A stretch of 64,000 nt of DNA, from assembly GCF_016026235.1 (NCBI RefSeq), contig NZ_CP065613.1. One strand, given 5' to 3'. A program made the translations under genes and the position numbers. The notes beneath the pieces are model-generated. The model worked only from the letters and a program-made list of their open reading frames with translations. It was not told the DNA's origin and did no database searches. The stretch comes from Escherichia coli. GTDB lineage: Bacteria; Pseudomonadota; Gammaproteobacteria; Enterobacterales; Enterobacteriaceae. Positions 11,124-20,346 of the stretch are shown piece by piece (the stretch's first letter is position 1; each line of letters begins with the position of its first letter).

Positions 11124-12415
11124 TGAGGGATCCCCAGAAAATTTAGTAAACCATTATCATATTGGTATACCGTTGCTGTAGAACTTTCAGCCCTGCGTCA
11201 AGTGACAGTGTGTTTAGTATGAGTGGAGAATGTCGAATCACATTCTCCGCCAGTTTTAATAACGAGATGACTCGCCTGTGCTTCACTGTATTTGCCTGAT
11301 ATTTATGATGTATCCCTTTGTTTTCCAGGCTGAAACCGCTTAACCACATAATGATACTGGCTAATGTTGCGATCAGACTCAATACCGTGACCCGCCCGGA
11401 TGAATGACTGGCACCAAACCGTAGTCCAAATCCCCAGCGAGGATTTTTTTCATCCCTGAAATTTTGCTCAATTTGCATTCTACGGCTGTATAATTTCATT
11501 ACCTGTTTTGGCGAGAACTCAGTACTGTTTGTGAAAATAAACCATGGTGATTTCCCGGCAGTACGAGCTTTAGCCGTCACCGATGGTCTGGTTGCTCTTT
11601 CCTTCGAGCGTTTAAATCAACGACCTTTAGGCTTACTTTTATAAAGATAAAAATGCCCTTCATGTTGTGCATTTTTATCTCGACCCAGCAGGCCTTCACC
11701 TAAATAAATTGCTGTCGTTGATGCTTTTGTGCCTGAGTCCGACACCTTTTCCCAGCCATTACCAACATTGTAATAATGATTGCCCAGTACCCGGCAAATA
11801 TAGGTCCAGCCACGGGAGCGGAGCTGTTGGAACCATCGCCCCTGAAAACCGGCATCTGTAATAACAATGACATCAGTCCCGGGGGAAAAGCACTCAGCAA
11901 GCGATTCCAGAAAACGCTCATGTACATCTGCATTCGCTGTCTGTGATGATGGAACGACACAACTCATCAACGGTAAAGAACGCCCGTCACATGCCAGGCT
12001 TGCCCGCAAAAGCTGAAAACGAGAGGCATGATAAGCACTCCAGTCAATGAGTATCACAACACGAGACATTCCCCGCGTAATCTTTTGGGTAATTCGCTGA
12101 AAAATGGTGGAAACCTCATTTTGCAAATGTCGATTCCCCAACAGTCGATCCACCCGCTTTATTTTGTTTTTAACTGATGCCGTACCGGTTAAATGACGCC
12201 CGATACTGGTAAGTGTGAGGGAAGCGCCATTTATTACAGCATTAGTTGCGTCAATCAGTGATTTTTGACGGTAAAGATGCAAAGGGGCCAGTATGTTGTT
12301 AAGGAAATTTTGGCATAATGAACGTGCAGGCATAGTGGTGATCTCCTTGAAATTGTTAGCACAATCAATTAGATCACATCTCACTATGCCTGTCTTGTTT
12401 TCTGGGGATTCCTCA
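11124..12415 (-). mobile_element. IS4-family (IS10-like) insertion sequence, 1292 bp, copy 1
   Basis: Terminal inverted repeats TGAGG(A/G)ATCCCCAGAAAA; 12-bp TSD; transposase related by eye to IS10 (DDE and YREK-type motifs DAGF, YSRRMQIE); identical to copy 2. Exact IS name not resolved: 1292 bp does not match what I recall for IS186. Confidence 0.85.
11143..12333 (-). pseudogene. IS4-family transposase; frame interrupted by in-frame TGA (238 aa + stop + 157 aa)
   Basis: ORFs 11617-12333 and 11143-11580 are in the same frame separated by a single TGA; AAGGAG RBS before the ATG. Confidence 0.75.
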
Positions 12416-12427
12416 GGAGAATTTCCC
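12416..12427. repeat. 12-bp target-site duplication GGAGAATTTCCC (high-coordinate copy)
   Basis: Matches 11112-11123. Confidence 0.85.
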
Positions 12428-12673
12428 GCTATTAAGAGCATCCATGATGCCGATCTCAGCAGGAATTTTAAGCCAGCTATAAGCAATCAGCTGGCTGAAA
12501 GCGAGGATCACACCGCCCATAATTAAGGTTGGCACCATGCGTGAAATCCCTGACATCACATGCTGCGGGAGTTCACCCCAGAAGCTGCTTTTAGAGGCCT
12601 GCGGATTCTTAACTGCCGCTGCCGCACCGGATGCGCCAGGCACAACGGTTGCACTGCGTTTTTTAATGGCCAT
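12416..12673 (-). pseudogene. fryC: PTS fructose-like EIIC, N-terminal 86 codons
   Basis: MAIKKRSATVVPGASG...IMDALNSGKFS then a stop just inside the IS end. Confidence 0.85.
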
Positions 12674-12694
12674 AACAATTATCCCTGTCGAATA

Positions 12695-13021
12695 TTACTG
12701 TTGTTCAGAGGCAATCATCTCTTCGATTTCTTTGATGATGCCCGCAGCGTTTTTAATTGCGTCCTGCAAAGTGATTTCATAAACATCGCGTGATTCGAAA
12801 CGTTCGTTATCTTCCGGGGTTACTGCCACGGAGTGGATGATGATGGTCGCTTCGGCGATATCCTGCGCCGTCAGGCGATTCTGGATACCGTCCGCGCCCT
12901 GGGTTTCAATTTTCACTTCATAACCGGCTTCTACCGCTGCTTCTTCCAGCGCCTGAGCGGCCATAAAGGTGTGAGCCAGGCCCATCGGGCAGGCACATAA
13001 GGCAATCAGTTTCTTACTCAT
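12695..13021 (-). CDS. fryB: PTS fructose-like EIIB component
   Basis: 108-aa protein MSKKLIALCACPMGLAHT... with the EIIB cysteine motif; start chosen at an internal Met of the longer ORF. Confidence 0.8.
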   Translation of the reverse strand: MSKKLIALCACPMGLAHTFMAAQALEEAAVEAGYEVKIETQGADGIQNRLTAQDIAEATIIIHSVAVTPEDNERFESRDVYEITLQDAIKNAAGIIKEIEEMIASEQQ

Positions 13022-13239
13022 CGTTAATTCCTCGTTCAGTGATAGTTGACGAGTGAAATTATGAACGTGCAAAACAAATCGCCGTTACCAGACAAATAAT
13101 GCATTTACTGGAGAATTAATCCCGCTGTACGGAAGTGTGACGCAGGTCGGCCTTGTGAGGGGACACAAAAAAAAATTGAATTAACTGTATGATTTAAAAG
13201 ATTATCGGGAGAGTTATCTCCCGATATAACAGGAAGGAT

Positions 13240-17534: not shown

Positions 17535-17558
17535 GAGAATGATTATCAAATTCATTTG
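17535..17558. promoter_or_regulatory. putative Fur box
   Basis: GAATGATTATCAAATTCATT resembles the GATAATGATAATCATTATC consensus in the mntH promoter region. Confidence 0.45.
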
Positions 17559-17820
17559 AATGGGTTGTGGTGATTTCTTTGATAGACCAGGATTATGACT
17601 ACGAAAAGATTGATGACTTGAATGTTATGGTTATGTTTAATGTTAGCACATTTACATAACTTTCAGCTTCCATACACAACATAGCAGAAATGTATGACAG
17701 ATCACTATTTTTGAAGCTTGTCACAGGACGTCATTATAGTGTGTGTCAGATCTCGTTTTCCTTAACCATGTTACATAGAATGTGCACGGAAATTTAACCT
17801 GCCTCATATTTGGAGCAAAT

Positions 17821-19023
17821 ATGGACCGCGTCCTTCATTTTGTACTGGCACTTGCCGTTGTTGCGATTCTCGCACTGCTGGTAAGCAGCGACCGCAAAAA
17901 AATTCGTATCCGTTATGTTATTCAACTGCTTGTTATCGAAGTGTTACTGGCGTGGTTCTTCCTGAACTCCGACGTTGGTTTAGGCTTCGTGAAAGGCTTC
18001 TCCGAAATGTTCGAAAAACTGCTCGGATTTGCCAACGAAGGGACTAACTTCGTCTTTGGTAGCATGAATGATCAAGGCCTGGCATTCTTCTTCCTGAAAG
18101 TGCTGTGCCCAATCGTCTTTATCTCTGCACTGATCGGTATTCTCCAGCACATTCGCGTGTTGCCGGTGATCATCCGCGCAATTGGTTTCCTGCTCTCCAA
18201 AGTCAACGGCATGGGCAAACTGGAATCCTTTAACGCCGTCAGCTCCCTGATTCTGGGTCAGTCTGAAAACTTTATTGCCTATAAAGATATCCTCGGCAAA
18301 ATCTCCCGTAATCGTATGTACACCATGGCTGCCACGGCAATGTCCACCGTGTCGATGTCCATCGTTGGTGCATACATGACCATGCTGGAACCGAAATACG
18401 TCGTTGCTGCGCTGGTATTGAACATGTTCAGCACCTTTATCGTGCTGTCGCTGATCAACCCTTACCGTGTTGATGCCAGTGAAGAAAACATTCAGATGTC
18501 CAACCTGCACGAAGGTCAGAGCTTCTTCGAAATGCTGGGTGAATACATTCTGGCAGGTTTCAAAGTTGCCATTATCGTTGCCGCGATGCTGATCGGCTTT
18601 ATCGCCCTGATCGCCGCGCTGAACGCACTGTTTGCCACCGTGACTGGCTGGTTTGGCTACAGCATCTCCTTCCAGGGCATTCTGGGCTACATCTTCTATC
18701 CGATTGCATGGGTGATGGGTGTTCCTTCCAGTGAAGCACTGCAAGTGGGCAGTATCATGGCGACCAAACTGGTTTCCAACGAGTTCGTTGCGATGATGGA
18801 TCTGCAGAAAATTGCTTCCACGCTCTCTCCGCGTGCTGAAGGCATCATCTCTGTGTTCCTGGTTTCCTTCGCTAACTTCTCTTCAATCGGGATTATCGCA
18901 GGTGCAGTTAAAGGCCTGAATGAAGAGCAAGGTAACGTGGTTTCTCGCTTCGGTCTGAAACTGGTTTACGGCTCTACCCTGGTGAGTGTGCTGTCTGCGT
19001 CAATCGCAGCACTGGTGCTGTAA
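17821..19023 (+). CDS. nupC: nucleoside:H+ symporter (CNT family)
   Basis: 400-aa protein [20 protein letters not shown]...; start at internal ATG of the longer ORF. Confidence 0.9.
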
Positions 19024-19042
19024 GACCATACATAAAAAAGCC

Positions 19043-19054
19043 GGGGATAATTCC
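19043..19054. repeat. 12-bp target-site duplication GGGGATAATTCC (left copy)
   Basis: Same 12-mer at 20347-20358; removing the IS and one copy restores the palindrome GCCGGGGATAATTCCCCGG followed by a T run. Confidence 0.85.
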
Positions 19055-20346
19055 TGAGGAATCCCCAGAAAACAAGACAGGCATAGTGAGATGTGATCTA
19101 ATTGATTGTGCTAACAATTTCAAGGAGATCACCACTATGCCTGCACGTTCATTATGCCAAAATTTCCTTAACAACATACTGGCCCCTTTGCATCTTTACC
19201 GTCAAAAATCACTGATTGACGCAACTAATGCTGTAATAAATGGCGCTTCCCTCACACTTACCAGTATCGGGCGTCATTTAACCGGTACGGCATCAGTTAA
19301 AAACAAAATAAAGCGGGTGGATCGACTGTTGGGGAATCGACATTTGCAAAATGAGGTTTCCACCATTTTTCAGCGAATTACCCAAAAGATTACGCGGGGA
19401 ATGTCTCGTGTTGTGATACTCATTGACTGGAGTGCTTATCATGCCTCTCGTTTTCAGCTTTTGCGGGCAAGCCTGGCATGTGACGGGCGTTCTTTACCGT
19501 TGATGAGTTGTGTCGTTCCATCATCACAGACAGCGAATGCAGATGTACATGAGCGTTTTCTGGAATCGCTTGCTGAGTGCTTTTCCCCCGGGACTGATGT
19601 CATTGTTATTACAGATGCCGGTTTTCAGGGGCGATGGTTCCAACAGCTCCGCTCCCGTGGCTGGACCTATATTTGCCGGGTACTGGGCAATCATTATTAC
19701 AATGTTGGTAATGGCTGGGAAAAGGTGTCGGACTCAGGCACAAAAGCATCAACGACAGCAATTTATTTAGGTGAAGGCCTGCTGGGTCGAGATAAAAATG
19801 CACAACATGAAGGGCATTTTTATCTTTATAAAAGTAAGCCTAAAGGTCGTTGATTTAAACGCTCGAAGGAAAGAGCAACCAGACCATCGGTGACGGCTAA
19901 AGCTCGTACTGCCGGGAAATCACCATGGTTTATTTTCACAAACAGTACTGAGTTCTCGCCAAAACAGGTAATGAAATTATACAGCCGTAGAATGCAAATT
20001 GAGCAAAATTTCAGGGATGAAAAAAATCCTCGCTGGGGATTTGGACTACGGTTTGGTGCCAGTCATTCATCCGGGCGGGTCACGGTATTGAGTCTGATCG
20101 CAACATTAGCCAGTATCATTATGTGGTTAAGCGGTTTCAGCCTGGAAAACAAAGGGATACATCATAAATATCAGGCAAATACAGTGAAGCACAGGCGAGT
20201 CATCTCGTTATTAAAACTGGCGGAGAATGTGATTCGACATTCTCCACTCATACTAAACACACTGTCACTTGACGCAGGGCTGAAAGTTCTACAGCAACGG
20301 TATACCAATATGATAATGGTTTACTAAATTTTCTGGGGATCCCTCA
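19055..20346 (+). mobile_element. IS4-family (IS10-like) insertion sequence, 1292 bp, copy 2
   Basis: Same IRs and internal ORFs as copy 1, opposite orientation; inserted 31 bp after the nupC stop and 30 bp from the convergent yfeA stop. Confidence 0.85.
19137..20327 (+). pseudogene. IS4-family transposase; frame interrupted by in-frame TGA at 19851-19853
   Basis: ...YLYKSKPKGR-TGA-FKRSKERATRPSVTAKARTAGKSPW...; where I recall IS10 continuing ...KSRSKGRKNQRS... Confidence 0.75.

Follow-up and report, generated by a model that had tools for sequence, protein, structure and literature searches.

The locus lies in a window of 64,000 nucleotides (the whole stretch of E. coli DNA that was analysed) and consists of a block of core genes bracketed by two IS copies (Table 1). 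The bracketed genes, from 12695 to 19023, align collinearly with K-12 positions 2,507,637-2,514,275 at 98.7% identity, and ypeD accompanies mntH in the block according to the K-12 alignment. The gene list given by the initial annotation (fryB, glk, yfeO, ypeC, mntH and nupC) is correct, but codons 1-85 of fryC belong to the block as well. These 5' codons lie inside because the left copy inserted within fryC. The description of this copy as flanking fryB thus holds for the location of fryB within the block, but not for direct adjacency, as it is fryC that is interrupted instead. The resulting FryC stub of 86 aa ends at a TGA contributed by the IS end, and the public collection has an identical stub in 110 blocks. 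On the side of ypdF and its neighbours, the FryC 3' fragment forms an ORF of 323 aa with a TTG start.

Table 1. Features of the bracketed block, its two IS copies and the adjoining flanks (window coordinates).
Feature	Position	Strand	Evidence and remarks
fryC 3' fragment, outside block	10122-11123	-	ORF, K-12 alignment, PTS_EIIC gene call; followed by ypdF, ypdE, fryA
Left copy target duplication, outer half GGAGAATTTCCC	11112-11123	.	Exact match; inside fryC
IS copy A, ISEc60-family (IS4 family)	11124-12415	-	1292 bp, within fryC; 100% reverse complement of copy B
Premature TGA of copy A	11617-11619	-	Arg239 codon AGA in reference; IS position 797; ORF ends at 11617
fryC 5' fragment, inside block	12416-12673	-	ORF 12413-12673; 86-aa stub
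Left copy target duplication, inner half GGAGAATTTCCC	12416-12427	.	Exact match
fryB	12695-13021	-	ORF; K-12 alignment
glk	13240-14205	-	ORF; K-12 alignment
yfeO	14409-15665	+	ORF; K-12 alignment
ypeC	15780-16106	+	ORF; K-12 alignment
mntH	16247-17485	-	ORF; K-12 alignment
nupC	17821-19023	+	ORF; K-12 alignment
Right copy target duplication, inner half GGGGATAATTCC	19043-19054	.	Left arm of nupC/pdeA terminator hairpin
IS copy B, ISEc60-family (IS4 family)	19055-20346	+	1292 bp, in nupC/pdeA intergenic terminator
Transposase N-terminal ORF of copy B	19137-19853	+	238 aa; NF033591 positions 1-203/340; TGA at 19851-19853
C-terminal transposase ORF of copy B, orphaned	19890-20327	+	NF033591 positions 206-339; motif YSRRMQIEQNFRDEK
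Right copy target duplication, outer half GGGGATAATTCC	20347-20358	.	Exact match
pdeA (yfeA), right outer flank	20377-22566	-	ORF, gene calls, K-12 alignment

Alignment of the window against itself revealed a single pair of long repeats, comprising two inverted arms (11121-12418 and 19052-20349) of 1298 nt each that are 100% complementary and separated by 6633 nt. The arms exceed the IS elements proper, which are exact reverse complements of each other, by 3 nt per side, a chance match in the flanks. Two long inverted repeats (1292 bp, 100% identity) thus reside on one replicon. The terminal inverted repeats of the element span 18 bp with one mismatch (17/18; TGAGGAATCCCCAGAAAA / TGAGGGATCCCCAGAAAA), and the IRR end faces outward at both sides of the block. 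Exact 12-bp duplications accompany both window copies as well as most ISEc60 copies elsewhere. The initial annotation had described identical copies in opposite orientation, each with its own matching 12-bp duplication, and both statements are borne out by the alignment. Divergence between the copies and unequal flanking 12-mers, which it had named as speaking against its reading, were looked for, and neither was observed.

Matching elements are named "IS4-like element ISEc60 family transposase" in RefSeq and are 99.9% identical to the window copies. ISEc60 in RefSeq E. coli (e.g. WP_001111632.1) likewise measures 1292 bp, of which 1291 bases are equal to those of the window copies, and has the 18-bp terminal inverted repeats, 12-bp duplications and GG..(A/T-rich)..CC targets in common with them. 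Conversely, the window copies carry A797T, which converts Arg239 into TGA and splits the 396-aa transposase into ORFs of 238 aa and 145 aa. The same nonsense change is found in both copies, position 797 being the single difference from the reference. The intact homologue, different by one base, scores 360.5 bits in a profile search with NF033591 (cut-off 152 bits, profile length 340 positions) and matches Pfam DDE_Tnp_1 (E=2.8e-20). The IS4 family is defined by the C-terminal signature Y-(2)-R-(3)-E-(6)-K, and the ORF at 19890-20327, which follows the premature stop, encodes this signature (YSRRMQIEQNFRDEK). Matches to DDE transposase models, the signature, short inverted repeats and the duplication place the copies in the IS4 family (ISEc60-like). 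An intact transposase frame, the mark of autonomy, is present in neither window copy, both having TGA at codon 239 of 396. Because the nonsense codon deprives the transposase of its catalytic C-terminal third, neither copy is autonomous, and neither the copies nor the block would move unaided. Movement would need transposase from an intact copy elsewhere, and one such copy (L036) is found in the same genome.

The target preference of ISEc60 is palindrome-like, GG..(A/T-rich)..CC, and the motif sits within the duplicated 12-mer. The left target, GGAGAATTTCCC, is present once in intact K-12 fryC and is occupied by ISEc60 in both orientations in other strains, which marks it as a hot spot. On the right, the insertion interrupts the nupC/pdeA terminator hairpin, which in its unoccupied form folds with a 15-bp stem (-22.6 to -25 kcal/mol) and which holds IS186C in K-12. 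IS186C occupies the same hairpin GGGGATAATTCCCC with the duplication GGATAATTCC, compared to GGGGATAATTCC here. IS186 itself differs from ISEc60 in its length (1345 bp), its unrelated ends (CATAAGCGCTAAC...) and a duplication of 10 bp rather than 12 bp. For IS186 of E. coli K-12, also of the IS4 family, the target 5'-GGGG(N6/N7)CCCC-3' has been described (PMC5009759).

The window aligns collinearly with K-12, and thousands of further E. coli genomes share its gene order. Elsewhere, nupC commonly sits beside pdeA without an IS between them; the exact PdeA allele occurs in 8346 blocks of the collection, with an empty site at all places among the matches listed. Collinearity with K-12, together with a separate duplication for each copy, indicates that two separate insertion events took place and that the block retains its ancestral orientation, in agreement with the proposal of independent insertions around a block not yet inverted. 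An even number of flips may also be compatible with this orientation. An alternative origin is provided by Tn5 and Tn10, in which inverted IS4-family copies (IS50 and IS10) likewise surround a segment with like ends outward. The window pair resembles these composite transposons in its outward-facing IRR ends, and the glk-mntH-nupC block could accordingly have moved here as a unit, or be about to do so. However, the whole unit is not framed by one common duplication: each IS has its own, with GGAGAATTTCCC on the left outer side and GGGGATAATTCC on the right. The block also occupies its native K-12 locus, next to the genes that normally adjoin it, and these observations refute a composite transposon as origin of the structure. 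Moreover, the junction sequences occur at a median of one place per genome among 5426 complete E. coli genomes, and both transposase genes are truncated ahead of the catalytic glutamate, rendering a unit of this type, past or prospective, extremely unlikely. A programmed invertible switch, i.e. a site-specific recombinase acting on short inverted repeats, was ruled out because there is no dedicated invertase gene: no invertase or tyrosine recombinase gene is present in 10122-22566, where everything besides the IS copies corresponds base for base to K-12 core genes.

Relatives were sought with the 323-aa FryC 3' fragment, used for a census of the locus, and with both full junctions (outer flank, IS and inner flank), searched in the 5426 complete E. 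coli genomes. The un-inverted junctions were found in none of these, and the only match to the full junctions, at 79%, came from E. coli FDAARGOS_943. Both insertions are present in this strain, and the block between them is reversed with respect to the flanks, the latter being 99.96% identical to those of the window (3-5 mismatches per 8-12 kb). The sequence at the junctions is GGAATTATCCCC-IS-GGAGAATTTCCC and GGGGATAATTCC-IS-GGGAAATTCTCC, i.e. the duplication halves are exactly swapped. The initial annotation had regarded the inverted pair as a ready substrate for inversion and had predicted that a flip would exchange the duplications; FDAARGOS_943 provides this recombinant form. A second relative, GCA_031665325.1, contains both insertions in the un-inverted state with matching duplications and 0 flank differences over 8.7 kb.

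The combined data are best explained by two ISEc60 insertions in inverted orientation that make the block invertible by homologous recombination, with the recombinant fixed in FDAARGOS_943, and we consider this very probable. An ISEc60-family element would have inserted twice in the lineage, into the palindrome-like 12-mer of fryC and into the GGGG-N6-CCCC hairpin between nupC and pdeA. Each insertion, in opposite orientation, would have generated its own 12-bp duplication, leaving identical inverted repeats of 1.3 kb that are separated by 6.6 kb. Presumably with the help of RecA, homologous recombination between these repeats would then flip the block and swap the outer duplication halves, yielding the arrangement now fixed in the related strain. 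Such recombination would be independent of the transposase; since the copies are identical, neither RecA dependence nor the crossover point is legible from the sequence. The copies in FDAARGOS_943 encode an intact transposase, as would suit an inversion by transposase-mediated intramolecular transposition, but the exchange of duplications is exactly reciprocal, and neither a further duplication nor a deletion or additional IS copy is seen at the junctions. Independent insertions into a rearranged chromosome might be favoured by the fact that both target sites are hot spots, with insertions of either orientation in fryC and, at the nupC hairpin, that of IS186 in K-12. Still, the IS copies of FDAARGOS_943 are oriented relative to the inner block as in the window, and the flank identity argues for shared descent. 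Either route to the inverted state thus appears most improbable, albeit independent acquisition of both insertions by FDAARGOS_943, although unlikely, is conceivable in view of the repeated use of the fryC 12-mer as a target.

An artefact of assembly, in which a collapsed or mis-joined repeat yields identical copies or an arbitrary block orientation, deserves consideration, as the nonsense allele common to both copies is known from GCA_900449985.1 only. It is nevertheless very unlikely, given that the independent assembly GCA_031665325.1 reproduces both insertions, their orientations and all four junctions, and that FDAARGOS_943 reproduces the inner junctions. Furthermore, copy-specific variants are present in the window's assembly (121T/797A in L036, 992T in L006), so the copies were kept apart rather than merged into a single consensus. 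Judging from its accession series, the window's assembly is probably a long-read NCTC assembly.

Returning to the preferred reading, recombination between the two ISEc60 copies has clear precedents. Inversions between IS copies are also known from the IS-rich pathogens Shigella, Bordetella pertussis and Yersinia pestis. Recombination between IS copies accounted for about 70% of the large rearrangements in the E. coli long-term evolution experiment (PMC4173774), and recombination between inverted copies inverts the intervening segment, a type of flip missed by short reads (PMC5009759). As in the long-term evolution (PMC4173774) and mutation-accumulation lines (PMC5009759), identical inverted IS copies surround a segment at the present locus; one IS is found at each end, the duplication halves are swapped, and both states occur among close relatives. 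The locus differs from these systems in having a very small segment (6.6 kb) that is confined to one replichore and whose two strands are equal in coding length. Genes occupy about 2790 nt of one strand and 2787 nt of the opposite strand, so that a flip is neutral for co-orientation with replication. The suggestion that recombination would turn the genes relative to the replication direction is therefore valid as to the flip being possible, but net co-orientation would remain unchanged. Overall, the flip has no obvious cost or benefit. The mechanism is already known, and the locus is an ordinary, well-documented instance of it rather than a new one. Its value is modest and lies in a clean natural IS pair caught before and after inversion within one clonal group, with the swapped target duplications as molecular proof of inversion. 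For structural-variant calling in IS-rich E. coli, the glk-nupC locus offers a potential marker or test case. A literature search on ISEc60 returned only mentions in lists, and nothing relevant under the assembly accessions.

Five nonsense-bearing ISEc60 copies, including the two window copies, were identified in this genome. The allele occurs in no other gene-index sample and in 0 of 5426 complete E. coli genomes, being restricted to assembly GCA_900449985.1. The orthologous copies in GCA_031665325.1 and FDAARGOS_943 lack it as well, so that the allele at the window copies is known from a single assembly. A systematic base-calling error is an unlikely cause, as the same assembly has the intact copy L036. 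The look-up that returned L036 also gave intact copies from other assemblies, whose accession series resembles, we assume, the NCTC series. At the sites of two nonsense-allele copies (L005 and L007) no complete E. coli genome has an IS. It is conceivable, though rather unlikely, that the nonsense-bearing copies form a real non-autonomous sub-family and that, jointly, the block flips recurrently and reversibly within the clone with a regulatory effect. If so, intact copies acting in trans, or TGA read-through at a low level, would have propagated the sub-family. With the block flipped, nupC and the IS would read into fryC'-ypdF-ypdE-fryA, and the fry promoter would be detached from those genes. 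Finally, mismatched flanks were observed at other copies of the same IS (L007/L017, L015 and L021), the expected mark of recombination between copies; at L021, the fryC copy now abuts rpiA.

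A repeat search over 9000-22500 returned one long inverted repeat (arms 11121-12418 and 19052-20349, 1298 nt, 100% complementary, spacing 6633 nt), and no second high-identity repeat longer than 100 nt besides the IS pair was found in the whole window. The two elements, copy A on the left and copy B on the right, are exact reverse complements of each other, as the initial annotation had held, and end in 18-bp terminal inverted repeats (TGAGGAATCCCCAGAAAA / TGAGGGATCCCCAGAAAA). The accompanying claims, that each copy has its own matching 12-bp duplication and that the insertions were independent, are likewise borne out by the separate, pairwise identical 12-mers at both copies. 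Separate duplications and the native position of the block rule out a composite transposon origin.

Coordinates of the IS pair, its target duplications and the interrupted fryC gene in the window
Feature	Position	Strand	Detail
IS copy A	11124-12415	-	1292 bp, ends read directly
IS copy B	19055-20346	+	1292 bp, ends read directly
Target duplication of copy A	11112-11123 and 12416-12427		GGAGAATTTCCC on both sides
Target duplication of copy B	19043-19054 and 20347-20358		GGGGATAATTCC on both sides
fryC 3' fragment	10122-11123		outside the block
fryC 5' stub, 86 aa	12413-12673		inside the block

It had further been predicted that recombination would invert the block and swap the duplications, an arrangement to be looked for directly; a public genome, the related E. 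coli FDAARGOS_943 (NZ_CP065615.1), supplies both. Its order is pdeA(+), ISEc60(-), fryC5'(-) fryB glk yfeO ypeC mntH nupC(+), ISEc60(+), fryC3'(+) ypdF ypdE, and in alignment with the window (99.96% identity; 5 mismatches in 11.9 kb, 3 in 8.1 kb) both flanks are opposite in orientation to the block. The junctions read CCGGGGAATTATCCCC-IS-GGAGAATTTCCCGC and GCCGGGGATAATTCC-IS-GGGAAATTCTCCGG, so that the two duplications are reciprocally exchanged exactly, with no gain or loss of sequence. Judged from the sequences, this exact swap is the signature of a crossover within the IS copies. The near-identical assembly GCA_031665325.1, whose flanks match the window without a single mismatch over 8.7 kb, carries both insertions with matching duplications and an un-inverted block. 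Orientation was surveyed with the 323-aa FryC 3' fragment, a gene called only if the IS is oriented as in the window. The un-inverted form was found in the window, GCA_031665325.1 and two similar places and the inverted form in FDAARGOS_943; several short-read drafts, with contigs ending in the IS, gave no orientation. Since the window order matches that of K-12, the inverted form is derived and the block has, as proposed, not yet inverted, albeit an even number of past flips may have occurred in this lineage. An assembly artefact is ruled out because independent assemblies reproduce the junctions, and a programmed switch because a recombinase gene is absent.

Two insertions, each making its own duplication, left identical inverted repeats, and FDAARGOS_943 has the reciprocal recombinant; host homologous recombination between the repeats would have flipped the block there. 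We infer this route from the exact exchange and from published knowledge: a segment between inverted IS copies is inverted when the copies recombine (PMC5009759), and recombination between IS copies produced about 70% of the large rearrangements seen in the long-term evolution experiment (PMC4173774). Novelty is low; this is a known IS in a well-known kind of rearrangement, and the value of the locus is that of a clean before-and-after example of inversion. Further signs that ISEc60 copies recombine are non-matching flanks at copies from other loci (L007/L017 and L015) and the fryC copy of GCA_901482675.2 (L021 4259-5550). The latter has the window orientation, and its outer flank GGAGGTTCCCCC is joined to the rpiA/argP/scpA region, not to fryC 3', which indicates a long-range rearrangement through another ISEc60 copy. 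Head-to-tail ISEc60 dimers were observed in fryC of VL46 (L003 12018-14613) and between hok and ydcA in GCA_031665585.1 (L011 1419-4014). These different chromosomal sites share an identical 12-bp spacer, GGGGATTTACCC, and the outer duplications match at each (GGAGAATTTCCC and GGGGATTTTCCC, respectively). Either the dimer moves as one unit by transposition, or an IS-plus-spacer circle integrates by recombination into resident copies.

At its K-12 position the window lies on the replichore replicated toward lower coordinates, so minus-strand genes are co-directional with the fork; the GC skew of the plus strand is -0.036. Genes of the block amount to about 2790 nt on the minus and 2787 nt on the plus strand, and the flip is thus neutral for co-orientation with replication. 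It parts the fry promoter, fryB and fryC' (the 5' part) from fryC''-ypdF-ypdE-fryA, which comes to lie downstream of nupC and the IS; fryC was broken even before the flip by copy A.

Of 5426 complete E. coli genomes searched by megablast, 267 hold the element, 14 of them at full length, with a top full-length identity of 99.9% to features labelled "IS4-like element ISEc60 family transposase". The reference protein (WP_001111632.1, 396 aa) matches Pfam DDE_Tnp_1 and, at 360.5 bits, clears the cut-off of 152 set for the IS4-family model NCBIfam NF033591; in the translated window, YSRRMQIEQNFRDEK fits the IS4 signature Y-(2)-R-(3)-E-(6)-K. The element is a known IS of the ISEc60 family (IS4 family), behaving in the known way.

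The window aligns collinearly with K-12 MG1655 2,496,527-2,567,600; in K-12 the copy A 12-mer occurs once, within intact fryC. The pair does bracket the block, but its left border is not fryB as first described: copy A lies within fryC. The public collection records the 86-aa FryC stub in 110 blocks. The fryC 12-mer holds ISEc60 in either orientation depending on the strain (position 4259 of loci L020-L029), the opposite one occurring in VL46 and several other assemblies, some with an NCTC-like accession series; it is therefore a strong insertion hot spot with at least two independent hits. In the IS-free strain GCA_036247785.1 (L062 about 3170-3180), AAA has independently become the nonsense codon TAA within the same 12-mer, so that fryC has been inactivated by several routes across lineages.

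Copy B interrupts the bidirectional nupC/pdeA terminator hairpin (AAAAAAGCCGGGGATAATTCCCCGGTTTTTTT), whose predicted folding energy without the IS is -22.6 to -25 kcal/mol. In K-12 the same hairpin is occupied by IS186C (L004 14250-15650), with a duplication, GGATAATTCC, consistent with the published IS186 target GGGG(N6/N7)CCCC (PMC5009759). IS186C is unrelated to ISEc60 though also of the IS4 family, and duplicates 10 bp where ISEc60 duplicates 12 bp. The two (ISEc60 at 19043-20358) converged on hairpin GGGGATAATTCCCC, among few genomic GGGG(N6)CCCC sites. Sixteen flanks from related loci gave an ISEc60 target consensus of GGGG-A/T-rich-(C/T)CCC, near-invariant at positions 1, 2, 11 and 12. 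An IS4 copy at 39416-40841 (1426 bp, minus-strand transposase of the 442-aa class, 12-bp duplication CGCCCATCGGCG) sits in the palindromic crr/pdxK terminator (AAAAATGGCGCCCATCGGCGCCATTTTTTT), the second IS4-family element of the window found in a terminator hairpin.

Both window copies differ from the reference solely at IS position 797, T for A, which turns codon 239 from AGA (Arg) into TGA (11617-11619 in copy A, 19851-19853 in copy B); each hence encodes an N-terminal fragment of 238 aa, with the catalytic motif left in an orphaned C-terminal ORF. The exact truncated protein is recorded only in GCA_900449985.1, the assembly of the window, at five places on UGFA01000002.1 and UGFA01000005.1, two of them exact substrings of the window. 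Five ISEc60 copies there carry 797T, one with 992T in addition, and at least one further copy (L036) is intact (797A/121T). The reference 797A is present in GCA_031665325.1 at all three matchable copies (fryC, nupC and a site beside the PTPS gene) and in both copies of FDAARGOS_943. No full-length 100% match was found among the 5426 complete genomes by megablast, and no 797T in orthologous copies of the near-identical assembly or in the other public genomes searched. We lean toward a real non-autonomous sub-family, its minority allele overwritten by short-read polishing in other assemblies: other copy-specific variants are preserved in GCA_900449985.1, and the intact gene comes, in the same look-up, from assemblies with an NCTC-like accession series. 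An error in GCA_900449985.1, or gene conversion among ISEc60 copies, could also give this pattern. Another nonsense-allele copy in this genome (L005 2919-4210, UGFA01000005.1) breaks motA in the neighbourhood of flhDC, and the strain is probably non-motile. The 12-mers on either side of this copy differ at a single position (AGGAAAGTCCCC / GGGAAAGTCCCC).

Relative to K-12, about 1 kb including yfeS is absent (window 42180-42184), as is cryptic prophage CPZ-55 between eutB and eutA (about 61880-61902). An IS1 copy at 27144-27911 (768 bp, with minus-strand insA/insB ORFs and no flanking duplication) replaces 2.3 kb of K-12, namely xapB and adjoining parts of xapA/xapR. As the xap region is intact in FDAARGOS_943, the event in the window is an IS1-adjacent deletion.
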